This document shows positions 3,060 through 26,706 of a stretch of 28,424 bases of DNA, one piece after another. Below the pieces are notes generated by a model that searched no databases, was not told the DNA's origin, and was given only the letters and a program-made list of their open reading frames with translations. This DNA is from a virus. The DNA lies in UHGV virus genome UHGV-0364842. The stretch is one strand, 5' to 3'. The position numbers and the translations under genes were made by a program. Positions within the stretch are counted from its first letter, which is position 1. Each line of letters starts with the position of its first letter.

Positions 3060-3404
3060 ATGTCAGATTTGGCTATGAAAGTTTTGAAATGGCAATCGAC
3101 TGGCGATGTCGGCATCAGTAGCGCAACTCTTGCCTCAATCGCATGTGGACTGAAAAAGAATATCTATGGTCATCACTTTGGAGCTCCCCATGACGCAGCC
3201 GATTTCCGACGATGCGTTGCACTTGTTGAGCAGATCCCAGAAATCAGAGATTCATTCGACAAGGTTGCAAAGCGCGTTCCGGCATTCAAAGGCATCCTCA
3301 ACGAATGGGATTCCCTCGTTGCTCTGTTGAAATCTGAAATGAAGATACACGGAAACAAAGCACCAGAGACTTACAGAAGAATTAGCGAGTTACGCAAGGA
3401 CTAA
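3060..3404 (+). CDS. hypothetical phage protein
   Basis: 114-aa ORF with a GGAGA RBS; no recognisable domain. Confidence 0.45.
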   Translation: MSDLAMKVLKWQSTGDVGISSATLASIACGLKKNIYGHHFGAPHDAADFRRCVALVEQIPEIRDSFDKVAKRVPAFKGILNEWDSLVALLKSEMKIHGNKAPETYRRISELRKD

Positions 3405-3462
3405 CCACAGCCTCACACTCGATGAGGTCTGTTCATTGCTCAATGATATCCAGACTTACCAT

Positions 3463-3488
3463 CGCCGCATCAATGCGGTTTTTTATTG
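3463..3488 (+). terminator. candidate rho-independent terminator (short stem)
   Basis: CCGCA-tcaa-TGCGG hairpin followed by TTTTTTATT; lies between the accessory genes and xis. Confidence 0.35.
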
Positions 3489-3529
3489 CCTGATTTGCAG
3501 GTTCGATTCCCTATTCGGAGATAGCACTC

Positions 3530-3730
3530 ATGCAACACGAACTACAGCCTGATTCACTGGTTGATTTGAAATTCATCATGGCCGATACTGGCTTCGGTAA
3601 AACCTTCATCTACGACCGGATTAAGTCCGGCGACCTGCCAAAAGCCAAAGTTATCCACGGGCGAGCAAGATGGTTATATCGTGACCATTGTGAATTCAAA
3701 AATAAGCTCTTAAGCCGCGCCAATGGGTAA
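3530..3730 (+). CDS. xis: AlpA-family excisionase / DNA-binding regulator
   Basis: 66 aa; FIMADTGFGKTFIYDRIKSGDLPKAKVIHGRARWLYRD resembles AlpA/Xis-type helix-turn-helix proteins; immediately upstream of the integrase. Confidence 0.7.
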   Translation: MQHELQPDSLVDLKFIMADTGFGKTFIYDRIKSGDLPKAKVIHGRARWLYRDHCEFKNKLLSRANG

Positions 3731-3979
3731 AATAGCGGGTAAAATATTTCTCACATCTAAAAAATACCATTCCAATCAATCCCCTGCTGTCTCAAGTAGA
3801 TGTCTGCAGGGGACACCATTTATCAGTTCGCTCCCATCCGTACCAGTCCGCAAAATCCCCTGAATATCAAGCCTTCCGTAGATTCACGGTTCGTCATGGT
3901 TCGCGTCAGATCGTTGACAGCCGCACACCATGACGGGTAAAAAGTGGATAAAATAATTTTACCCACCGGATTTTTACCC
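3722..3979. other. candidate attP / integrase arm-site region (GGGTAAAA direct and inverted repeats)
   Basis: GGGTAAAAT at 3725-3733 and 3737-3745, GGGTAAAAA at 3935-3943, inverted TTTTACCC at 3957-3964 and 3972-3979; an 8-bp inverted repeat TCCCCTGC...GCAGGGGA lies between them. Confidence 0.3.
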
Positions 3980-5125
3980 ATGCTCACCGTTAAGCAGATT
4001 GAAGCAGCAAAGCCGAAAGAAAAACCATACCGCCTACTCGATGGTAATGGCCTGTACCTTTATGTCCCTGTGTCAGGGAAAAAGGTATGGCAGCTTCGCT
4101 ACAAGATTGACGGTAAGGAGAAAATCCTGACCGTAGGAAAATATCCGCTAATGACTTTGCAGGAAGCAAGAGATAAAGCATGGACCGCGAGGAAAGACAT
4201 CTCGGTTGGCATCGATCCGGTAAAAGCGAAAAAGGCTTCGTCTAACAACAATTCCTTTAGTGCGATTTACAAGGAATGGTACGAGCACAAGAAGCAAGTC
4301 TGGTCAGTAGGCTATGCAAATGAACTTGCAAAAATGTTTGATGACGACATTTTACCTATCATCGGCGGCCTTGAAATTCAGGATATTGAGCCGATGCAAC
4401 TGCTGGAAGTAATCCGCAGATTTGAAGATCGCGGTGCAATGGAGCGAGCAAATAAAGCCCGCAGAAGATGCGGCGAGGTTTTCCGTTACGCTATTGTCAC
4501 TGGTAGGGCTAAATATAACCCGGCACCTGACCTTGCTGACGCCATGAAGGGATACCGCAAGAAAAACTTCCCGTTTCTTCCTGCAGACCAGATCCCGGCA
4601 TTTAACAAAGCACTGGCAACATTTTCAGGAAGCATCGTATCGCTCATTGCGACCAAGGTTTTACGCTATACAGCCCTCAGAACAAAAGAGCTTCGTTCCA
4701 TGCTATGGAAGAACGTCGATTTTGAAAACAGGATTATCACCATCGACGCCAGTGTGATGAAGGGACGCAAAATTCATGTAGTTCCTATGTCAGACCAGGT
4801 AGTTGAACTTCTCACTACGCTAAGCTCAATCACCAAACCAGTATCAGAGTTTGTTTTTGCCGGGCGCAACGATAAGAAAAAGCCAATCTGCGAGAACGCG
4901 GTGCTACTTGTGATCAAACAAATCGGCTATGAGGGTCTGGAAAGCGGTCACGGATTCAGGCATGAATTCAGCACGATTATGAACGAGCACGAATGGCCTG
5001 CTGATGCTATTGAAGTGCAACTGGCACATGCCAACGGCGGATCTGTGCGCGGGATTTACAACCATGCTCAGTATCTCGATAAGCGCAGAGAAATGATGCA
5101 GTGGTGGGCTGATTGGTTAGGGTAG
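3980..5125 (+). CDS. int: tyrosine integrase, P4/IntA-like
   Basis: N-terminus MLTVKQIEAAKPKEKPYRLLDGNGLYLYV is typical of P4-type integrases; C-terminal catalytic region with the HxxR...Y pattern. An in-frame GTG at 3944 is an alternative start. Confidence 0.9.
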   Translation: MLTVKQIEAAKPKEKPYRLLDGNGLYLYVPVSGKKVWQLRYKIDGKEKILTVGKYPLMTLQEARDKAWTARKDISVGIDPVKAKKASSNNNSFSAIYKEWYEHKKQVWSVGYANELAKMFDDDILPIIGGLEIQDIEPMQLLEVIRRFEDRGAMERANKARRRCGEVFRYAIVTGRAKYNPAPDLADAMKGYRKKNFPFLPADQIPAFNKALATFSGSIVSLIATKVLRYTALRTKELRSMLWKNVDFENRIITIDASVMKGRKIHVVPMSDQVVELLTTLSSITKPVSEFVFAGRNDKKKPICENAVLLVIKQIGYEGLESGHGFRHEFSTIMNEHEWPADAIEVQLAHANGGSVRGIYNHAQYLDKRREMMQWWADWLG

Positions 5126-5214
5126 CCATCCTTGGCATTAACACAGCATTTTTACGCAACAACACGGCACACCACGTTACGCGTCGGCACAGTGCGACAC
5201 GCGGATGTCACAAA

Positions 5215-7593
5215 TTAAACAGTGTATCCAGAAAATACGTATCGCTGAGTAACTGATGCTTCTGCTTGTATCTCAATTCCAGTTGAGCTAACTACGCAGT
5301 TAACTTCAAAAGATGTTGCTGAACCGATATTCATCGCAAACGTTCCGTTATTAACTCCTGTAGTTTTAGTAACTTTCTCTCCTGTTGACTTAGTAAATTC
5401 GATCGTTGTTGCTGTTGAACTTTTTGATATCGTGAATTTTAAATTACGATCACCAGAATCGCCATTATTTATAATAATAAATCTATCTCCAGTAGCGATA
5501 TTAGTAGTGGTTGGTACCCCAACCCTAAATAATACAACTGGAGATGATGAAATTCCATCAAACCCAACACGCATAATACCAACTGAGTTCCATAAGTGAC
5601 CAAAGTCTAACTCTGTACCAGATAGTACATTCCCGGTGCATGTACACATATCTGATAACGTAGGGTTTGATGATGGATTAGTTATCCTGCATCTTGTTTT
5701 TGAATTAAACTTATTATCAGAAATGACAAGATTCATATTAGAATACCCATCATTGTTAGTGGTGTAATCAGTAAATACAGTAAGGTCGCCAAACATACCT
5801 TTGTTATTTGATATATTCAGTGTGCCAGTAAACCCGCCACCACCAGATTGACTACCTGTGTTCATTTGCACCAATCCAACTACTAACGCATCTGGCAGAT
5901 CGAAAATATTGTCCGTAACCGTAATCTGCTGACGCAAGTTGTACGGGTACAAAGAAACACGTACAAAGTTAGTGCTAGTATTAGCAGGTGAAGAGAAGTG
6001 ACAGCCGGATATAACTACGTTAGTTAGAGGTGTGCCATTCGCAACGTAGTTAAGAGTAATTAGCTCGATATCACAGTTATGAATATGCACGAACCTATTA
6101 CCATACACCAACGGACCTACTGTTGGTGATCCTACCCAATCGCGTGTTTCTGCGAACAGGAATGTACCCTTGGAGTTGGCAAGTGTAATGTCCGGGAATA
6201 GCTCCTGCATGACACTGACGTAGTTACGGCGGTAGAACCAGCGCTTGTTAGTGCTACTGTACTGATAGGCCTCTTTGATTTTATGCGGCACCATAAGGCA
6301 GGAGTTCCAGCCAATGCAGTCTTCGATAGTGATATCACTCTCTTGAACAAGGTGCGCTTTATTGTAAATGTCGTACATTTCTAGAGTAGCATTAGATCTG
6401 CATTTAACTCCTTTTTGATATCCTTTGTAATGGCTAAGTGACCAGCAAGACACTAACGCCATTGCTGTATATCCGTTAGAACCATCTGCCCAAAAATCGT
6501 CATCATTATCAATAGAGTAGTCATGTATTGAAACGTTCTTCATAGCATGGCGAATTTGTTTTTCGTAGATATTTTCGTTAACACTACCTATTTGTATAAA
6601 TGTGCCAGCCATATTATGAACTGTGAAATTTGAAATATCTATTGTCTCGTGAGGGAAGTCTCGCGTAAGAAGAATGAAATCGTAAGGACTCTCAGCGTGA
6701 AAATGCGTTAATGAAATGCTATCGCAACCATAGCTTACTTCATCTGGATTTATATTTAATGGGCCGATCGCAGTAAATATTTCAACCCGACCAGTTGTAT
6801 AGAATTTAGATGCTTTTATGGATTTTATTTTTGTTATTGATCCATCAACCACACCAACCAGCCTTGGCCTGATAGATGAAATTTCGCTGCCATGGACAAT
6901 GAAATCTTCACCATAGAAATACCCATTTGTTTTTAAATAAAAGTTATAACCGTTACCTGGGTATATATCCCCACCCCCCCAAATATTAAGGAAAGATACT
7001 GAAATATTCATATCATCAGGAAGATATACGGATTTACCCATTAGATTTAGATTGACACCGCCAAACAAAGACTCCATCTCTTCAAGAGCGGTTTTGTTTA
7101 AAGACGCTGATAGCGGTGCATTATAAACGCCACCAAATGCGGATATGTCACCGTTCATCCATGATAAATACTTATCAAGTGATGCGTTAGATACATTTTC
7201 ACCTGAATGATGAATATATGATGTCCCATTTGGTTCAACCAGTCTTTGAGCCAACTGATCAGGGTCGTATTTCAGCACATTCGGAAAATAGAACTGCTGT
7301 GCACCATACGCATCATAAACAGCCATAGAATGGCCTTGCACGGTAACGAATTTGGCAATCTGTCCGTTATATACCGGATATCCGGCAGCGTTAATGATGA
7401 TTGGTTGCGAAACAGGAACGTGAGAACCGTCTTCGTTCTCCACATAAACCTGAATCTGGTTTTCAGGATTTACCGGGTCAGTGTCAATTTTACCGATATA
7501 AATTTTTCCATTGGCTACGGCTTTAAAAGAACGCGCCATAGTGAAGAGTTGCGAAGGCATGCTTACCACAACATTGGCTGTAATGTCTGTCAT
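5215..7593 (-). CDS. tailspike protein: P22 gp9-like head-binding domain with a divergent receptor-binding domain
   Basis: The first ~115 aa closely match the recalled P22 tailspike N-terminus ([11 protein letters not shown]...VLKYDPDQ); the remaining ~680 aa are unrelated to the P22 endorhamnosidase domain. Confidence 0.9.
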
Positions 7594-7693
7594 TTAATTT
7601 GCTCCAGATGCAAGGAATCGCCGCAGCATGGCTACGGTGAATTTTGGGCATAAAAAAACCCAGCCGAAGCTGGGTCGTTGCGTTGGTTATCTG

Positions 7694-8617
7694 TCAGTAG
7701 CTATGTACTGAAGGAGGTAATTCTTTATTCTTAAGTCTCATCCATGCGGAAAGATTCGTTGGTCCGTCTGGCTCATTGATATCAACATCTCGTGTGTGAT
7801 TGATTAAAACGTCCCTCGCCATTCCGATAACATACGAGAACTCATGACCGTAGTCGTAGCATCTGCCGGAATAATTCGATTGAATTTGTTTTAGCGCCGG
7901 ATACAGTTCGCGGAATAATGCCTGTGAGCGGTTGGCATAATCCCATAACCATACAAGGCTGTTTGCTTCTTTTGCAGAAAGCTCGTTGGTTTTCTTCTCT
8001 TGTTTGCCAATGAACTCACCTTCAAGCGGAACGCGAGCAGCAAGTGACAGTGCTTCGGTAAACTGCTCCTCACTGATTTCTTTGTACGAACATCCAAAAT
8101 GGGATTTCAGTGACGACCACATGGTGATCATCGCCTTAGCCTGTTTTTCTTTTGGCAGAGACTGACCGCGACTCATGACGAGTTGTTTAATGGCTTCCTG
8201 CTGTTCAGTGGTGATTTTACCCGGCAACGCTTTTTTAGCTTTGCGTGGGTTAACTACATGGCCTTTAGTCCAGTACTCGTATAGCACATCGTCACACTCT
8301 TCTTGATACTGGATTACATTGTCGCGGATTTCAGGGCGGACTTTGTTAGGGCTGATGGTTTGCAACCAGCCATTCAGTTTACGTAAAGCAAGGCAAATCA
8401 TGGTCTGCACACCGCCAACTGAAGGTATTGCGATTTCCACAATACCTTTAGCAAATCTTTGTTTTAACTTTGTAAACTGTGAAGCCCAATCCATACCCAT
8501 TCCCTCAACGATAGGTTTCATTGGGGTGTACGGCTCACCGTTGTGATTGACAACATAAAGCTCTGCGCCGTGGAATGGTACATTGATAGTAGATACTGCT
8601 GTTGCTATACTTTTCAT
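7694..8617 (-). CDS. ant: antirepressor Ant
   Basis: 307 aa; N-terminus [23 protein letters not shown] matches P22-type Ant/BRO-N antirepressors; sits downstream of arc. Confidence 0.8.
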
Positions 8618-8680
8618 GTCGTTAATTCCTATGCGTGGTTTTACGATATCGAAGCCCTGACTGTTCCCGCAGTTGGGGCT

Positions 8681-8863
8681 TCACTGTTTTATGTTCACAT
8701 CTAACATTGTTTTTCTAGAATTTAACTCTTTCCCCATCGCTTCAACGCAAAGAGATACACAACCACTACAGATAAATATCTCTGCTTTAGCGCGAATCAA
8801 CATTGCACATTCATGCTGAGGCTTTCCGCAGAAGGAGCACTTAAAGCCATCTTCTTTATTCAT
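8681..8863 (-). CDS. ClpX N-terminal zinc-binding-domain-like mini-protein
   Basis: 60 aa; CSFCGKPQHE...LI...FICSGCVSLC matches the ClpX N-domain signature (CSFCGKSQHEV...YICDECVDLC in E. coli ClpX, from memory). Start overlaps the arc stop. Confidence 0.6.
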   Translation of the reverse strand: MNKEDGFKCSFCGKPQHECAMLIRAKAEIFICSGCVSLCVEAMGKELNSRKTMLDVNIKQ

Positions 8864-9012
8864 ATCGCCACCCCCTCTTTCTTCAGGCTGTCTATCAGGC
8901 GCTTGATAACCTCTGAGTTAAACGACCTGCACTCTTCCTTTGCCCTGCTACCGATAGCATCCTTTAACGACTGCGGCATCCTTACCAAAATCTTACTTAT
9001 TTCTTTCTCCAT
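8860..9012 (-). CDS. arc: Arc-like ribbon-helix-helix repressor
   Basis: 50 aa from the ATG at 9012 (GGAGGG RBS); RSFNSEVIKRLIDSLKKEG resembles P22 Arc RSVNSEIYQRVMESFKKEG. Confidence 0.75.
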   Translation of the reverse strand: MEKEISKILVRMPQSLKDAIGSRAKEECRSFNSEVIKRLIDSLKKEGVAI

Positions 9013-9126
9013 GTTACCCTCCACACAAACAACTCTTTTCGAATACAAAAGATAGCAAAGTGAGTATATCTAGTCAAAATTTTTTTGCATACACTTTGAT
9101 ATCAAATTGAATACCAAAGGTGTGTT
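9013..9126. promoter_or_regulatory. divergent immI promoter/operator region (arc-ant operon versus mnt operon)
   Basis: Intergenic region between divergent arc and mnt; perfect 12-bp palindrome TTTGATATCAAA at 9095-9106, flanked by ACACTTTG / CAAAgGTGT. Confidence 0.5.
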
Positions 9127-9375
9127 ATGGCAAAGGGTGTGTCAATTTCTCCAACTACGGTAAGAATCCCTGAATCTTTACGCGAGGCTCTTGCTGTTAG
9201 AGCATCAAAAAATGGTCGCTCTGTTAACTCCGAGATCGTCATGATTTTGCAAGCCGCGATTGATGAAGATAGGTCGCCAAAGTCAGTTGAGTCATTTGCT
9301 CAGCAAGAAGCTGACAAATTCAAAGAGGCGCTGCTGGAGACGCTGAAAACCATGTATGGTAAGGATGATAAATAA
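9127..9375 (+). CDS. mnt: Mnt-like repressor (Arc/MetJ family)
   Basis: 82 aa; NGRSVNSEIVMILQAAI resembles the P22 Mnt N-terminal ribbon-helix-helix domain; divergent from arc. Confidence 0.8.
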   Translation: MAKGVSISPTTVRIPESLREALAVRASKNGRSVNSEIVMILQAAIDEDRSPKSVESFAQQEADKFKEALLETLKTMYGKDDK

Positions 9376-9911
9376 TGCTGCACACAATTCATTTCTTATG
9401 CCCCGTTAACACCGCCACTGTTGGGCAACTTCAGAACCACTGTCTCACCGCATTATCTCAAGGCGCAACTGAATTAAATATCCATATATCAAGTCAGGGA
9501 GGGGAAACTGCCGCTGGTTTTACTGCGTATAACTTTCTTAAGTCACTCCCTGTTACCGTTAGAACTCACAACATAAGCAATGTTGAATCCATAGCTAATA
9601 TCGTTTTCCTGGCTGGCTCAGAACGTTTCGCAAACCCATTATCAAGATTCCTGTTACATCCTCTATTATGGGGCTTTGCCACCCCAGCCGCCGACCATGC
9701 CAGACTGAGAGAGTACGGGAAATGCCTCGATAACGATCTTGATCGCTTCGTTGAGACGTTCAATATCGACATCGGAACCCATATTAGGTGGGCATCCCTG
9801 ATAGCAGACTCGACCATTTTGGATGCTAACAAGGCTCTTGAGCATGGCATAATTAATTCCATAAAAACTGCAAGGCTGGCATCCAATCAGGCAAACTGGT
9901 GGGTTGTTTGA
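9375..9911 (+). CDS. ClpP-family serine protease-like protein, N-terminally truncated relative to ClpP
   Basis: 178 aa; aligns with the ClpP core by eye: ISSQGG vs INSPGG; Ser in NVESIAN vs GQAASMG; His in LLHPL vs MIHQP; Asp in ADSTILD vs ERDRFLS; ALEHGIINSI vs AVEYGLVDSI. Start overlaps the mnt stop (TAATG). Confidence 0.6.
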   Translation: MLHTIHFLCPVNTATVGQLQNHCLTALSQGATELNIHISSQGGETAAGFTAYNFLKSLPVTVRTHNISNVESIANIVFLAGSERFANPLSRFLLHPLLWGFATPAADHARLREYGKCLDNDLDRFVETFNIDIGTHIRWASLIADSTILDANKALEHGIINSIKTARLASNQANWWVV

Positions 9912-9936
9912 TGGGTAAATCATGATTACTCCTTAT

Positions 9937-9962
9937 AAAAAACCCACCTGACGGTGGGTTTC
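9937..9962. terminator. bidirectional rho-independent terminator
   Basis: AAAAAA-CCCACC-tgac-GGTGGG-TTT; sits between the convergent ClpP-like gene (+) and lipoprotein gene (-). Confidence 0.6.
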
Positions 9963-9967
9963 ATTTC

Positions 9968-10387
9968 TTAATCTTGCTTCGTGGAAGGTATAAGAGATGC
10001 ATTTGCCTCTTTTGGCTTCAATGTATACATCCCACCATTAAATGGATCAACAGCAAGCCAACCAATTAACCCACCAAACACAAGGTTTCCACCAATATAC
10101 CAACCATTAGCATTGGCTTTGATTGGCAGGGTAACTGGTTCGTACCCATCCTTCTCCATAGTGATCTGGTAGCTCTTTTTGCCAAAATAGCTACCATCTG
10201 ACTTGGCGAGTGTTACACCTTGTGGAGTCTTACCTTGCGCAACAATCACACCCGATTCATCTTTTACCTTAAAGCTCGCGCCAGAAGGATTGCTGTTCAC
10301 TTGCACAAGTTGCGTTTCATCACCAACAATAGTTGCGCACCCAGATAACATGATAACGCCAGCAACGACGCTAATAATCCTCTTCAT
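9968..10387 (-). CDS. lipoprotein with PEGA-like domain (candidate moron / superinfection exclusion)
   Basis: Signal peptide MKRIISVVAGVIMLSGC with an LSGC lipobox; PEGA-like segment (SNPSGASFKV...GKTPQGVTL...KDGYEPVT). An alternative start at 10399 is possible. Confidence 0.6.
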   Translation of the reverse strand: MKRIISVVAGVIMLSGCATIVGDETQLVQVNSNPSGASFKVKDESGVIVAQGKTPQGVTLAKSDGSYFGKKSYQITMEKDGYEPVTLPIKANANGWYIGGNLVFGGLIGWLAVDPFNGGMYTLKPKEANASLIPSTKQD

Positions 10388-10504
10388 ATCAATTTCCATA
10401 TTTAAAAAACCGGAAACATCCTAATGACAAAACATTCAAATGTGAAGTAGGCAAAAGATGTTTACTTTTTTCATGGTATCCTGCTCAAAACTAAGGAGGT
10501 TGGT

Positions 10505-10732
10505 GTGAAGCGATGGTTCCTCATAATTACTGTTTTCGCGATCATTTACACTATTTTCCCTGCATTAAAAGCACCAATGCAAATAATTTCACTAGCAATA
10601 ATTTCGATTGGTGCTTTCATTGCAGTAGCCGTACTTGTGTTTAAGGTTTTAAAGTTTTTAGTTTGGCTATCAAAAGATGATGGATGCAAAGTTCATCAAG
10701 AAAAAGAAGGCAAAATAACCAAAGTTGACTAA
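10505..10732 (+). CDS. small hydrophobic membrane protein (two predicted TM helices)
   Basis: GTG start after an AAGGAGG RBS; 75 aa with two hydrophobic stretches; AT-rich. Confidence 0.45.
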   Translation: MKRWFLIITVFAIIYTIFPALKAPMQIISLAIISIGAFIAVAVLVFKVLKFLVWLSKDDGCKVHQEKEGKITKVD

Positions 10733-12852
10733 CTGTCACTAGCGAGCCATGTAATAATCCCCGTGCGGGCAATGGTTTTTGCTTCATCTGTTGATAAGGT
10801 TTTCTCCCATCTCTTAAATGCCCCAGATTGCATCAGTTTCCTTTCTATTGCGCGTCTCACTTCTGCTCTGTCTACTGGTGCGTTTTGCAGGCGAAATAGC
10901 ATTGATTTAAACTCAGGAGAAGATAGCAGAGCATCAGCAGCCTTTATCCTGCTTGTTTTCCCTGACATCAATGCAGACGTTATCACCCCTGTTGCACCTA
11001 CACCAGGGAGACCAGATAAGCTTGTAATACCTTCCGCCGCAGCAGCTTTTGAGGCTATTCCATAAATTTTTGCGAGACTACCCTTTTCTTTCAGAAAGTT
11101 ATTAACTTGCTGATCCACAAGACTACTAGCATACTGCTTACCAGTATTGAGTCTATTCATAGCCTTAGCTGCTTGATAAATCGTATCAAGGCGCTTTGAT
11201 GCATCTGTGCCAATAGCATCACGGAGAGCCTTCATATTGGCCCCATTGCGTGACATTCCGTTATACCATTTTACAAATCCATCAACTCCTAATTGCTGAC
11301 CAGGTGATTTGGCATAGCTGGTAAATGCTTTATTCATTGAGGTGAGCGCAACTTCCTGCCGCATATCCTTTGGAATCGACTTCATTAATTGCCTAAAGTC
11401 GCCACCGTTTCCTTTTGCCATATTAACAACAGCACTTTCAACTTTTGGAATTGCTGATTGCTGAAGTTTTCTACCCAAGACGGTTACAGCATCATCTTCA
11501 ATGGATTTTCGTTTTTTTACCAACTCCTTACCAAGCGTCCATAATTCCCCTGCGCCATATTTTTCTGCGACAGCCTGTTGGTCATCTGTTATGGCTGCAT
11601 ATAACTTTTTAAGAACACCTGTTTCTTCATCCTTGAATGGACCAGAGCCTTTGCCAATAGCTTGTCCAACCTGCTTTCTAGCGAGATCTAAACGCCCATA
11701 CGTTGGCAAGGTGTTTGGATCAAGTCGGTTCAATGTCCGCTTCATTATTGGAGATAATTCATCAATTCCACCTATGTCATCAGCAAAATCCTCTAAAAAA
11801 TTCAATGTATTAGTTGCCTCAATCCGGTCTCTTACAGGAACCTTTTCGGCAATTTTGTTGTAGATGTTATCTGACTGATTTTGTAATGATGAAATGGTTT
11901 TATCAAAATTATCTGCAAGCCTGTCAGAAACCAGTTGCTTATCAAGGCTTCCCCCAAATGAAGTTATCATTTCATCAGCTTTTCTTCCTAATTCAGTAAT
12001 AAAACGCTTATGCGCCTCACTAATCTCTGTTCCAGGGAGACTTGCCACTGCATTATCAAGAGCCCTGACAGCAGGATTATTAGAGATCATGCCTGGAGTG
12101 GCATAATTTTCCAGTTCTAGCTCACGAATAGCATTTATCGCGTTAAAATCAGGATTAACTTCATCGGCGAAATCTTGAATAGCTCGTTGCCCGCCGATAA
12201 ATTTATTGTCCATTGCGCCAGCAGCTTTCTTTAACGTTGCTTTAGATGATTTACTACCCATCCCTACGGATGAGCGATAAATATCTCCGGCACTATTTTT
12301 AATTTTTCCTGCAATCTTCCCAAGCGCTGGACCAACAATCTCGGCTACAGGGCCAGCCACAGCGCCAATAGCAGCGCCGGAAGCAACATCGCTATTTGTT
12401 CCATTGGCTACAATAGCCCCTTCTCCAGCACCAAGCCCTGCGGCGGCAGCCAGCCTTGCCGCCCCTTTCGGAACCTGAGAAATAATCCCACCACCACTAA
12501 CAAATGGCGCTGCTTGTCCAACGAACTCACCAACATCTTGTGCGGTTGATGGTTTTGCCGCTAACTTCTGCTGTAGAGACTGAATTGCGGCTTGCTCTTC
12601 TGGTGTCATGTCCTGAAACAGGCCAACACCTTTACCAACATCCATCAATCCACTGAGAACGCCATACATAAAACGGTCGAAGCCGTTAGCATTATTAACA
12701 ACATTTTCCTGTCTGGAATTTTCCTCTAGTGAAACCAAAGGAGATTGCTGCTGTTCTGGTTGTGCATCAAGCACAAAGCCATCAGGAAGCTGTGAGTTAT
12801 CAGGCTGTTCATCCAGAACAAACCCCTCTGGTAAACCTACATTGGTTGCCAT
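10729..12852 (-). CDS. DNA ejection/transfer protein, gp16-like
   Basis: 707-aa ORF in the position of P22 gene 16 (last of the 7-20-16 ejection gene block); Ala/Gly-rich. Confidence 0.75.
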
Positions 12853-18372: not shown

Positions 18373-19668
18373 TCACGCGGTCTGGTTAGGCAGACCAACA
18401 CCAATTGCCTCTGGTCGTACAGCACATGCTGAATACCACACAGCAATACGGCACTTACCAGACAGAGTATTGATATCACCCTGCGTTGCGAAGATGCCGT
18501 TAACACCAATACCAGGAATGCTGAAGGAAGAAGTTTTCATGCCAGCAAACAGTTCATGGGTTACCGGGATCGGCTGAGACAGCAGACGGATTGAGTCATC
18601 AGCCCAGAACACGTTAGCGGTGGTTGTTGCCACGTTCAGAACGTTTACCGGAGTGGCATCAGCAAGATGGGTGTTTACGTTAGCGTAAGCCTTCTCTTCT
18701 TTTGTCAGTGACGCGTCATCCAGCGCAATCGGCTTCGGCGTGATTTCGATGTGAGTACCATCGATCACACGGGTGATTGAGAAAGTCGCATCATCAGTCA
18801 GCACGTTCTTCGCCATCTGAGACAGGAATTTCACACCAGTGAAGCTGATTTTGTCGCCGCGCTTAAATCCGGTGGTGGAGGATACGGTCACCGTTGCAAC
18901 ACGGTTATCGACGTTCTCTTTGTTACCATCGGTATCAAGGGTGTATGCCTGCGGCTTAAACTTCTGCGCACCAGAAACAGTTACACCAGTAGCGGTTGAC
19001 TTGGTAACTGCGGGAAGTTTCGGTGAGCGAAGAATTTCATCAAAGCCAGCAATCTGACGCTGAATAGTACCGTTGCGATACGCTTCTTCAGGAACGCGAC
19101 CGAAGATGTCACCATCTACCAGGTTGCGGCCTGCTTTGCGGTAATCGTCAGGGTTCAGGAAGTAACTGATGCCCATATCGCGGTTTAGCTCACGGGAGAA
19201 CATCAGGCGCTCTGCATCAGACACAAAATCCCAGCCAGACAGGCCAGTCGATGGACCAATTGCGCGGGTATCGTGAACAACAAGCGAGCCCATTTCAGTT
19301 GCCTGTTTGGCAATCGCTGACTCAATGTTATTCGCCAGTTTTTTGGCGGATGCCTGGATGCGGCGACGGTAAGAACGCTCATCACGCAGGTCATCTGCAC
19401 GAAGCTCGAAGAAATCGTTATCCGGATCACCCATGTTGCATTTCACGGAGAGTTCCAGAATCCCGGTTGCGTTGCCAGTTAAATCCCAGCCAGTCTGGGT
19501 TGGCGCTTCCTGCTCAACAGGCATCCACACGGTGTTGCTTGAACGCTGCATGGATTCTGCCGGAGGGGTGTATTTTGTCACTTTGGACGCCATTGGCGTC
19601 AGGTTCTGGACGGTTTCGATGATTTCATCGATAGCGTAAGTAACTAACTGCCCTTCTTTGAGAGTCAT
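18373..19668 (-). CDS. major coat protein, gp5-like
   Basis: 431 aa; extensive identity to the recalled P22 coat protein (EIIETV..., [27 protein letters not shown]). Confidence 0.9.
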
Positions 19669-19735: not shown

Positions 19736-20257
19736 ATGAGCATGGAACTGAATGAATACTTCGAATACCGCGATGGCTCTTTGGTTTGGAAAGCCAGAAG
19801 CTCTGAATTTTTCAACAACAAAAAGAATCGCAACTATCACAACGTTTGGAATGCAAAACACGCTGGGAAAGTTGCTGGTCTTTTAGAAAGCAATGGATAT
19901 ATCCGCATAAGAATTAACGGCATTAAGTGGCTAGCACACCGCATCGTATGGGTGATGTTTAACGGAGATATTCCAGAAGGCATGGAAATTGACCATATAA
20001 ATGGGATTCGCCACGACAACAGAATTGAAAATCTTCGTCTTGTGAAAAAATCAGCAAACCAAAGGAATAGAATCAAACTATCTAAAAATAACTCCAGCGG
20101 AATATCTGGAGTTTACTTTTGCAACACGCGGAAAAGATGGATCGCTCATAAGCGACTGCTTAATGCAAGAGTGCAAAAAGTATGTTCTTCATTCGAAGAG
20201 GCGAAAGAAGTAATCAGAAAGTTTGACGAGGAAAACAACATCACGATATCGAAATAA
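19736..20257 (+). CDS. HNH homing endonuclease with AP2-type DNA-binding domain
   Basis: 173 aa; IDHINGIRHDNRIENLRLV HNH motif, then GISGVYF...RWIA AP2-like motif; AT-rich; opposite strand to the flanking structural genes. Confidence 0.75.
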   Translation: MSMELNEYFEYRDGSLVWKARSSEFFNNKKNRNYHNVWNAKHAGKVAGLLESNGYIRIRINGIKWLAHRIVWVMFNGDIPEGMEIDHINGIRHDNRIENLRLVKKSANQRNRIKLSKNNSSGISGVYFCNTRKRWIAHKRLLNARVQKVCSSFEEAKEVIRKFDEENNITISK

Positions 20258-21169
20258 TTATCGAATTCCTTTATTCAGTTGCACCTTGAGCTTGCGGTAT
20301 GTCTCTACATCCCCTTTGTTTGCTGCCGCTTCCATCTGCTTTTCAATCGCAGATATATTTGCAGCAACAGCGTGTCCCTGAATGGGTTCATCAGGTAGCG
20401 GGGCTTCTGAAACAGGTTTGGCTCGAGGCTTGAGAGTTAAACGTTCTGACAGTCGAGTGAGTTCAATCAGCGCGGATTGCCCGTCCATCGCCAGCAACTG
20501 GCGTGTTTTCTCAGGATTAGCACCAAGGTGATACATGAGAGCGGCGGATTTCTCCGGGAAGAGGCGCATGATGTCGGCACCGACTGCTGGCGGCACCAGT
20601 TGCATGAATGCATCCTCTTTCTCCTGATAGTCAGGGATATTGAGCTTTTCCGCTGCGTCGTAGTGCTTACGGGCTGCCTCGACGTATTGCGCTGATTGCT
20701 GGGTGAACTCCTGAGTTTTGCGACCCTGCTCGGCGACAGCCTGGCTTCGTGCGTCCATAGCCTTGATCTGCCATTCACTGTTTGCCTGCTGGAAGGCAGC
20801 CAGTGCGCGGCTCTGGTCATAGTCGTACTTAGCCAGTGCATCTTCGGAAAGATAATCGTTAGGGTCTGGTTGTTTTGGTAACTCAGGGTTCACCCGCAGG
20901 TGCTCCGGCAATTCTCCACGCTTAACCGCTTCCATCTGCTGCTCAAGCTCACGCTGGCGTTTGCGTTCGATGCGGCGACGGGCAAATTCAGCATTAGTTG
21001 CCGGGTCTTGTTTTGGTTTCTCATCGTCTTTCAGGACAATCTCGAAGCCTTCTTCCTGACCTGCGTTGTCGTTGGCATTATCGACAACTAAGCCATCAGC
21101 AGATGCCGCTGCATGATTGCCGGGCAGGGTTAATTCTTCAGAAGCCTGAATGTCGGTGGTTTGGTCCAT
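20258..21169 (-). CDS. scaffolding protein, gp8-like
   Basis: 303 aa, the same length as P22 gp8 and near-identical over long stretches (e.g. [59 protein letters not shown]). Confidence 0.9.
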
Positions 21170-24848: not shown

Positions 24849-25320
24849 GGTTGAATAGCTCCTTGATACGAGAGCGTCGCTTATCGCGATCTCCCTTATC
24901 AGGTGTCACGTCTTCAACTTGCGACTGCTCTTTGAGGCCCAAATCACGGGCGATGATGTTAGCGTTGAGAAGGTCAGCGGCTGCGCCAGAGAATTTCTGG
25001 TCGTAGATGATGTCTTCCGCTCGTGATGTGACGTCAGAAAAACCTTCCATTGACCGGAAGGTTCCCCACGTTTGCCTGGTGATATCAAGGAAGGTACACA
25101 ATCCTGAAATAGTCATGGCTCGCATCTTAGGGACATTAGCCTTAATTATTTCTCCCTGATATGAAAATACCTTACCCTCCCATAGCGGGTTATCATCAGC
25201 CCACTCGAAGTATTCACAACAAGCAGCCCACAGCGCCTCAGGCGATTCGAATTTAGGATTTCGCCCATGACTACTGCGGGCCTCCCAAAATCGGTTGCCC
25301 TTTGGTGCTGCCATATTCAT
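24826..25320 (-). CDS. terminase small subunit, gp3-like
   Basis: N-terminus [38 protein letters not shown] and C-terminus match P22 gp3; the central segment is divergent. Start at 25320 or 25314. Confidence 0.85.
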
Positions 25321-25349
25321 CTCACTTAGTTGTTATTTCAGGTTGAGCA

Positions 25350-25592
25350 TCATGCTCCGGTAGTGAACAGGTCTAACGCTTCCTTCGATTTACGCACCGC
25401 TTCGATAGTGCGGGTCGTGATATCTGAATTAGCGCCACCTGACTGGAAGTGAATTTTGAATAGCTCAAGCTTCAGCTCGTCAGTGCCAATGAATTGAAAT
25501 GCTTCTTCTGCGGCTGCGTTCTGGTTCATGACCAGTTTGTAAATCTCTAACTGGAATTTCTGTTCTTCAGTCATGGGAATAATCTCTGCCAT
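25350..25592 (-). CDS. hypothetical protein (80 aa) upstream of the terminase genes
   Basis: ATG preceded by an ACGGAG RBS; in the position of the small ORF that precedes gene 3 in P22-like phages (from memory). Confidence 0.5.
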   Translation of the reverse strand: MAEIIPMTEEQKFQLEIYKLVMNQNAAAEEAFQFIGTDELKLELFKIHFQSGGANSDITTRTIEAVRKSKEALDLFTTGA

Positions 25593-25738
25593 TATTGGCT
25601 CCGTTTATCCGTTAAAAGGGATATCAGTTAAGTTATCCCGTGTAGGGTATAAGCCATTATCAAAGCCACTCTGTAGGGAATGGCTTTTGTGATGGCAATA
25701 AAAAAGGCCGACTTAGCGACCAATTTAATAATTAATTA

Positions 25739-25981
25739 TCAATAATGTGGGAATTGGTTACTATTTTGCAAGATAACCCAAGATGGGCGAAACAAGTCAA
25801 AAACATTGATGCTTAACAGGGCTTCATTTATTGATTTTTTTTCATCCGCAGAAACTCCGCGTCCTGCATTTGACATTACAAGCTGACCATTAACTATTTC
25901 ACTACATTGTTTTACATAACTACCTGGCGGCATTGATTGAAAGTTACATGTACCATTTATTATTTTATCAATTTCACTCAT
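25739..25981 (-). CDS. hypothetical AT-rich small protein (moron candidate)
   Basis: 80-aa ORF with a GAGGT RBS; AT-rich; no recognisable domain. Confidence 0.4.
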   Translation of the reverse strand: MSEIDKIINGTCNFQSMPPGSYVKQCSEIVNGQLVMSNAGRGVSADEKKSINEALLSINVFDLFRPSWVILQNSNQFPHY

Positions 25982-26220
25982 ATCAACCTCGTCTAGTTGT
26001 TCGTCATAGATTCAGTGGCTGGCGGTGACGATTCCGCTTTTCGGGAGCTACCCTAGCCACTGTTTTATTCTATCCGATGTCTTTCCATCAGTCCGCCACC
26101 ACAAAGAATCTTTTTTGCCATAAGGCAGGGGGTTCATCTTTCAGTGGCTGCCAGTGTTATTTCCCCACTTACTGGCTTGGGTTGTTTCGTGGTACTGCTG
26201 TTAATTAGTGAGTCCGGGGA

Positions 26221-26706
26221 TTATTTCAGTTCGTTACCAGGCATTTCTTTTAGCTCTTTCAAATGACAACGATTGAGACTAAACCACTCCCCGTGCGACC
26301 TATAGTTGTAATATTTTTGGTGCAATTTGGTTTCAAGCTCTCTATCGGCCGGAATCTTTGCAATTAGATTTAGCTTCCCACCACTCATGCGAGATATCTC
26401 TGAAATTCGTTTATTAACCCTGCGACTAAACCCTATTTTTGTTAGCCCACTATCTTCAGCATGCAGAACGTACACATATGATTTTTGCGAAGCACTGGGT
26501 GCGACTTTGTTGTAATTAATCATGTCAAACATGAAGCCTTGCTTTAGCAAAGTTTCAAAAAAGATAGAATTAACACACCCATTCCTTCTCAGCTCTGCAC
26601 TTAGCTTGTCAATTTCCTCTATGATGTCGCCAGACCCCTTTCCACTTATAAGAAAATCTTGGTACATGCGACCAATTCTTGAGGTAATTTCAACAAAGTT
26701 ATTCAT
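26221..26706 (-). CDS. T5orf172 / GIY-YIG-like domain protein
   Basis: 161 aa; C-terminal half YVYVLHAEDSGLTKIGFSRRVNKRISEI...HGEWF fits the GIY-YIG/T5orf172 pattern; N-terminal ~65 aa unassigned; AT-rich. Confidence 0.6.
   Translation of the reverse strand: MNNFVEITSRIGRMYQDFLISGKGSGDIIEEIDKLSAELRRNGCVNSIFFETLLKQGFMFDMINYNKVAPSASQKSYVYVLHAEDSGLTKIGFSRRVNKRISEISRMSGGKLNLIAKIPADRELETKLHQKYYNYRSHGEWFSLNRCHLKELKEMPGNELK

Follow-up and report, generated by a model that had tools for sequence, protein, structure and literature searches.

Which bacterial surface sugar does a P22-like phage recognise when its tailspike keeps a standard virion-attachment domain and bears behind it a long receptor-binding part unrelated to that of P22, and what is to be made of such a gene lying directly beside the integrase gene? 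The question is raised by the tailspike gene of the virus genome UHGV-0364842, from which a stretch of 28,424 nucleotides (nt), called the window throughout, was analysed. The gene is an ordinary kind of phage mosaic with a rare receptor module of the type carried by phage Kapi1. It is quite likely that it encodes a tailspike in which a standard head-binding domain carries this Kapi1-type module and in which the module binds and cleaves O-antigen, a role assigned from the homologous spike of Kapi1 and from the analogous ones of P22, Sf6 and HK620. Public data already hold a protein identical to this tailspike (P0001).

5215..7593, minus strand: tailspike gene, 792 amino acids (aa) plus stop codon (list of open reading frames (ORFs); Pfam Head_binding; full-length similarity to Kapi1_067)
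7255..7593, minus strand: head-binding (virion-attachment) domain, residues 1-113 (PF09008)

The full Pfam profile PF09008 (Head_binding) matches residues 1-113 of the tailspike with an E-value of 2.9e-67, and a sequence search of the PDB with the tailspike returned the N-terminal domains of Sf6 gp14 and P22 gp9 only. An earlier note, made from the sequence alone, had described residues 1 to ~115 as nearly identical to P22 gp9. The domain is indeed of the P22 type, but near-identity overstates the case, as BLASTP against P22 gp9 (taken from NC_002371) gave 87 identities over 113 residues (77%), and the domain is closer to the Sf6/Kapi1 type (~95% to residues 1-102 of Sf6 gp14, 93% to the Kapi1 type and 99% to the prophage protein P0019). 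Judged by these identities, it belongs to an E. coli/Shigella subtype. At the DNA level the head-binding region is 90-96% identical to HK620, Sf6 and CUS-3 and this identity ends at about nt 341 of the gene; more generally, likeness to these three phages, to IME10 and to over 1100 E. coli prophages stops at gene nt 339-343 (residue 113-114), which by its position is the classical joint after the head-binding domain, exactly where recombination had been proposed. Past residue 113, BLASTP against P22 gp9 found nothing significant, so that the distal part shows no sequence relation to the P22 endorhamnosidase, as had been claimed, and it is also rich in Gly, Asn, Ser and Thr (36% in the C-terminal part versus 23% in the N-terminal domain). 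The gene order (ejection proteins, immI/ant, tailspike, int) and the structural genes, which are 95-96% identical in DNA to those of E. coli Lederbergviruses, complete the picture: with a PF09008 N-terminus, a place in a P22-like late operon and a predicted distal beta-helix, the gene is, by its sequence and setting, a tailspike gene from a temperate E. coli phage of the P22-like kind (Lederbergvirus).

When residues 121-792 were compared with 50,697 phage records by tblastn, one match was returned, the tailspike of Kapi1 (Escherichia phage vB_EcoP_Kapi1; Kapi1_067, QOC59583.1; genome record MT813197), which is carried in its record as "hypothetical protein" and is 52% identical over 100% of the query (E=0), or 58% over the whole tailspike. 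The two phages are of one type at the level of the genus, their spikes have the same architecture and nearly the same length (791 aa in Kapi1, 792 here), and the homology extends from end to end through neck, helix and C-terminal domain, while about half of the module residues differ. Among 5.8 billion protein clusters, 28 relatives (clusters at 90% identity) were found; 27 of them cover 100% of the query and the remaining one (P0028, 586 aa) covers 87%, and the family alignment has 98 invariant columns. An exhaustive HMMER search over 1.84 billion representatives returned only five strong clusters, and Pfam scans of ten of its matches (three strong, seven weak) gave nothing informative on the helix. 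General resources are of little help beyond the adaptor: Pfam, NCBIfam and PHROGs hold no model beyond residue ~177 of the tailspike, PDB searches with the tailspike protein and with two family profiles recovered N-terminal adaptor domains only, and the family profile aligned to the HK620 and Sf6 tailspikes with an HHalign probability below 1%. The receptor domains of Sf6 gp14 and HK620 gp9 are thus unrelated to this one even by profile-profile comparison, unlike their head-binding domains.

The module is also rare in genomes. It was absent, in the form present in the window, from 5426 complete E. coli genomes (megablast, blastn), and the Kapi1-type module occurs in three of these, all rodent isolates and including the Kapi1 host MP1. 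IMG/VR contains five loci with relatives, and the GTDB species-representative genomes contain no relative. The 90% cluster of the tailspike itself comprises 49 sequences, among them E. coli RefSeq entries named "phage head-binding domain-containing protein", and near-identical copies are on record from draft genomes of E. coli (WP_249818335.1 is one). Draft genomes with this protein also include those of WP_244579882.1, WP_319850671.1 and EOW3254119.1. By these comparisons the receptor module is one of a small family founded on the Kapi1 tailspike and is not new to science, and the suggestion of a new receptor-binding domain has to be withdrawn in view of a tailspike that is 52% identical throughout. 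High identity to a characterised tailspike was looked for and did not appear, the Kapi1 spike being known at the level of the phage only.

7054..7254, minus strand: neck or linker, residues ~114-180, partly helical (junction alignment, segment identities, model helices 139-177)
5614..7053, minus strand: predicted right-handed parallel beta-helix, residues ~180-660 (~480 residues)
5218..5586, minus strand: C-terminal beta-sandwich, residues ~670-792 (model secondary structure, segment identities)

An AlphaFold2 model of the monomer, built on the 28-sequence alignment, has a predicted local distance difference test (pLDDT) score of ~90 from residue 150 to the end (792). It consists of a short helical neck (139-177), a run of beta-strands (180-660) and an all-beta C-terminal domain (674-791), and the module is accordingly predicted to be a right-handed beta-helix followed by a C-terminal beta-sandwich. 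The top Foldseek ranks were taken by the spikes of HK620 and Sf6, the phi92 colanidase spike and Acinetobacter depolymerases, and structural matches in BFVD were to generic tailspikes. The beta-helix that had been expected from composition is therefore upheld by the model and by the Foldseek search, and P22 gp9 shares with the tailspike this predicted class (beta-helix plus C-terminal domain).

The module is not tied to one kind of virion. The N-termini of the family are of three kinds, namely PF09008 (P22-type), PF18668 (G7C gp66/CBA120 TSP1-type) and neither of these, and the homology common to the family starts at query residue ~116-123. The exchanged module begins with the neck, which is ~60-70% conserved in all family members whichever N-terminal adaptor they carry; the match to phrog_8280 reaches tailspike residue 177. 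The nearest relative, P0002 (DAE42956.1), is 77% identical over the receptor module and is located in a 73.7-kb N4-like contig, from a virulent uncultured phage of ~74 kb, where it has a PF18668 (G7C gp66-type) adaptor instead of PF09008. Its identity is very unevenly distributed, with 92% over residues 301-560 versus 46% over the last 97 residues (696-792), for which Kapi1-like sequences are closer (~60%), the reverse of what is seen in the central helix. Segment identities thus indicate that the C-terminal domain has a separate evolutionary history. Because the adaptor kinds vary and because the segment identities to P0002 and to the Kapi1-like group diverge, the gene is, on this comparison, a three-part mosaic of a P22-type adaptor, a helix in common with virulent N4-like phage and a C-terminal domain from another lineage.

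5117..7252, no strand assigned: cassette without DNA homology to Sf6, HK620 and IME10 (blastn of window 3301-8800 against the Sf6, HK620, IME10 and Kapi1 loci)

In DNA, the exchanged segment is bounded by the 3′ end of int, where likeness ends at 5116, and by the head-binding joint, where it resumes at ~7253 (7240 in IME10). A 7049-bp contig (L002, Logan SRR9990212) carries the same tailspike with 98.7% nt identity over window positions 5007-7637. Its immI region differs, with a SocA_Panacea-domain gene and no ant, and downstream nt likeness stops at 5007, leaving only a diverged 54-aa match (74% identity, tblastn) to the C-terminus of the integrase. From this comparison the cassette, with the spacer and the last ~120 nt of int, moves between P22-like backbones.

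What such a spike would do can be outlined from Kapi1. That phage needs polymerised O-antigen, since wzy and waaL mutants of its host are resistant, and its virions alter the ladder of purified lipopolysaccharide; its authors obtained no match for the distal part of the spike and assigned no activity to it (PMC8787464). Residues 1-113, the standard head-binding domain, would dock a trimeric spike onto the tail hub, and at residue ~114, the usual joint for recombination, they are connected to the Kapi1-type module with its neck, its predicted helix of ~480 residues and its beta-sandwich. Judging from the homologous Kapi1 and from the spikes of P22, Sf6 and HK620, the beta-helix would bind one particular O-antigen of E. 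coli at its repeating units and cleave them, and cleavage would let the virion work down to the outer membrane and only then eject its DNA. Its specificity for sugars is probably different from that of Kapi1 because the domains are only 52% identical.

Several observations weigh against this proposal. Both the O-antigen target and the glycanase activity are extrapolated from phage-level experiments on Kapi1, at 52% identity. The structural matches are generic, with no neighbour in the PDB that stands out and sequence identities of ~10%, too distant to tell a hydrolase from a lyase or from a domain without activity. The model is monomeric and its N-terminal domain came out poorly, as sequences with different adaptors were mixed in the alignment. 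The most pointed observation concerns the helix itself: at position 382, Ser stands in the tailspike and Thr in its two closest relatives (P0002 and P0003), and if the Glu found elsewhere is catalytic, the present spike may be inactive or work differently.

6376-6450, minus strand: site of tailspike positions 382-405

This position belongs to a polar core of the beta-helix made up of NP..G (282-289), N327, N339, E344, NDDDFWAD (363-370), S382, D408 and K440. When residues 260-450 were compared with distant homologues at 15-18% identity, P283, G289, N327, N339, D365 (within NDDDxW), Y375, Glu382, G395, D408 and K440 were found to be kept, and such conservation suggests an active site and not a mere scaffold. 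(ChW repeats or Big_7, which belong to cell-surface proteins of bacteria, occur in two of these homologues.) Of the 28 family members 25 have Glu382, as do 24 of the 25 sequences of the distant-homologue alignment; the tailspike has all the other core residues and lacks this one, which is otherwise characteristic of the family. In exactly the same three proteins a one-residue insertion creates Glu405, 23 residues downstream of 382 or roughly one turn of the helix, and Glu405 could be a relocated active-site residue. The Kapi1 spike keeps Glu382 and is without the Glu405 insertion (P0011).

These substitutions are the basis for the rival idea that the spike is a binding-only adhesin, which still recognises its glycan and whose clade lost catalysis through the change of Glu382 to Ser or Thr. 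The rarity of any residue other than Glu at this position speaks for it, yet the other conserved acidic positions (E344, D364-366, D370, D408, E418 and D425) are intact, Glu405 could substitute for the lost residue, the central helix is kept at 85-92% across P22-like and N4-like phage, which suggests a function, and the catalytic role of Glu382 is itself only supposed. The loss of catalysis is thus considered unlikely. A more speculative proposal, doubtful as it stands, goes the other way: the Kapi1-type modules may form an undescribed glycanase family of their own, with a beta-helix fold and the signature NP..G, NDDDxW, Glu382 and YD at 407-408. In this clade the catalytic Glu would have been relocated by roughly one helix turn (E382 to S/T, plus Glu405), shifting the register or the specificity of cleavage, and the helix so altered would recently have passed between temperate P22-like and virulent N4-like coliphage.

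Binding and cleavage of O-antigen, the preferred reading, also has to be weighed against a different receptor, namely a capsular or other exopolysaccharide (K antigen or colanic acid), as with the endosialidase of CUS-3. Indeed, P22-like head-binding domains can carry capsule-specific modules, the CUS-3 tailspike being annotated as an endosialidase; capsule depolymerases and the phi92 colanidase are among the structural neighbours; and the PHROG that best matches the N-terminal 177 residues takes its name from the degradation of colanic acid. The last match stops short of the helix, however, and Kapi1, the sole homologue studied by experiment, needs polymerised O-antigen (PMC8787464). Sister prophages with spikes of this family moreover bear cargo of the O-antigen type (OafA-like acyltransferase, Wzx-like protein) beside the spike, and a capsular receptor is accordingly judged improbable. 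Finally, the domain might be an enzyme other than a glycoside hydrolase, such as a polysaccharide lyase or a group-modifying enzyme, but this is given little credence.

5126..5214, no strand assigned: spacer of 89 bp between the convergent int and tailspike stops (sequence)

The second part of the opening question concerns the position of the gene beside int. The last position of the int ORF is 5125 and the stop codon of the tailspike begins at 5215, in agreement with the ~90 bp given in the earlier note. The 89-bp spacer contains no ORF, no cargo gene and, in a terminator scan, no terminator hairpin, and its folding z-scores (+0.3 and -0.3) indicate no unusual structure. The note had also reported that gtr genes are missing between tailspike and int, which holds for the spacer and for the rest of the window: tblastn of P22 GtrA/B/C, Sf6 Oac and HK620 HkcF gave nothing at E<0.01 in the whole window, ~11 kb of the genome lying outside it, and among the accessory ORFs of the window neither Pfam nor PHROGs revealed a glycosyl- or acyl-transferase. 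In other phages the same slot holds oac (Sf6), the wzy-like hkcF (HK620) or, in Kapi1, only a 34-aa ORF (hyp24) and likewise no conversion gene. The gap is an unoccupied slot for lysogenic-conversion cargo, and the lack of a conversion gene is real but ordinary because this is a known variable cargo position; what had been put forward as a missing seroconversion module is thus correct as an absence and not as a special feature. As is shown by Kapi1, which does seroconvert, an empty slot does not prove the absence of seroconversion.

Occupied slots were seen in two sister P22-like prophages at argW that have Kapi1-family spikes. In one (L014), an OafA-like acyltransferase (Acyl_transf_3 plus SGNH, 611 aa; 8405-10240) lies between spike and int, and in the other (L017), a Wzx-like Polysacc_synt protein (408 aa; 8421-9647); both are candidates for O-antigen modification of the kind left unexplained in Kapi1.

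3980..5125, plus strand: integrase of the Sf6 IntS type (P4-like, with Arm-DNA-binding domain; Pfam, tblastn)
3804..3819, plus strand: attP core CTGCAGGGGACACCAT, holding the last 15 nt of tRNA-Arg(CCU) argW (sequence, annotated Sf6 attP core)
3530..3730, plus strand: excisionase gene xis, AlpA/TorI-like (phrog_66, E 2.7e-8; collinear with Sf6 gene 18)

The layout of P22 (gene 9, gtrCBA, attP, int), against which the locus had been read, is not the appropriate reference, as the integrase is 98.9% identical to that of Sf6 over 380 aa (tblastn) and of another type than that of P22. Its ORF is listed from a GTG at 3944, and homology to Sf6 Int begins at the ATG at 3980. By blastn, positions 3464-5116 are 96-97% identical to Sf6, as are positions 3406-5116 to IME10, and the int-attP-xis module matches HK620 at the same level; the match to Kapi1, at 96.1%, starts at 3821, where the Kapi1 record ends. 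The similarities to Sf6, IME10 and Kapi1 all end 9 nt before the stop of int. The attP core of Sf6 maps to 3804-3819, and the same junction could be read next to the argW tRNA-Arg(CCU) in the related prophage L014; therefore, attP lies between int and xis, and the phage has, to judge from these alignments, the integration module of Sf6, HK620 and Kapi1, with an IntS-type int. A position of attP in the gap between spike and int, as in P22, was considered and rejected, the argW core lying upstream of int.

A further segment at 3495-3510, TTGCAGGTTCGATTCC, is an exact 16-mer of the T-arm of argW, which in the tRNA adjoins the attP core on its 5′ side. The phage has the two pieces ~294 bp apart, on either side of xis. 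Among 100 shuffles there was no such match, and the segment overlaps the putative pI promoter of the Sf6 record; a longer ancestral attP, identical to the tRNA, may have left it behind as a relic.

7657..7676, minus strand: terminator-like hairpin with a run of T between ant and the tailspike start (scan)
7694..8617, minus strand: antirepressor Ant (immI), upstream neighbour of the tailspike as in P22 (Pfam P22_AR_N, P22_AR_C)
10729-12852: gp16-like ejection protein
18373-19668, minus strand: coat gene
20258-21169, minus strand: scaffold gene

Upstream of the tailspike, the hairpin at 7657..7676 has the position of t-ant in P22, whose annotation has a terminator after ant, and the place of the spike gene after ant is that of gene 9. 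The immI region (8681-9911) holds several small genes. A ClpP-like protease (9375-9911, plus strand; PF00574, E 4e-12) directly follows an Mnt-like ribbon-helix-helix gene (9127-9375, plus strand), and a 60-aa protein with a ClpX-type C4 zinc finger (8681-8863, minus strand) adjoins Arc (8860-9048, minus strand); this cargo might interfere with host ClpXP or be a defence/anti-defence pair. Between this region and the ejection-protein gene, where P22 has sieA, a 143-aa predicted lipoprotein is encoded (9968-10399, minus strand; signal peptide plus Cys, phrog_6823, weak PEGA match), a candidate for a superinfection-exclusion or surface-modifying moron.

Two further ORFs lie among the structural and lysis genes. 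An HNH_3 endonuclease ORF (19736-20257, plus strand; E 4e-22) runs antisense between the coat and scaffold genes with a G+C content of 0.43 versus ~0.50, and is probably a mobile homing endonuclease; in Kapi1 the HNH gene instead adjoins the tailspike. A T5orf172/MUG113 (GIY-YIG-like) ORF (26221-26706, minus strand) has the lysis genes on one side and the small terminase gene on the other, where a stretch of low G+C content extends over ~25000-26500.

Tailspike receptor domains decide which O-serotypes a phage infects or can be engineered to target. The occurrence of the same helix, at 92% identity, on the unrelated virions of P22-like and N4-like phages provides a clean natural case of module transfer between temperate and virulent coliphages and a candidate for the engineering of host range. 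The current picture of how tailspikes work is left unchanged, and the chemistry of the family would help to explain the effects of Kapi1 on O-antigen.
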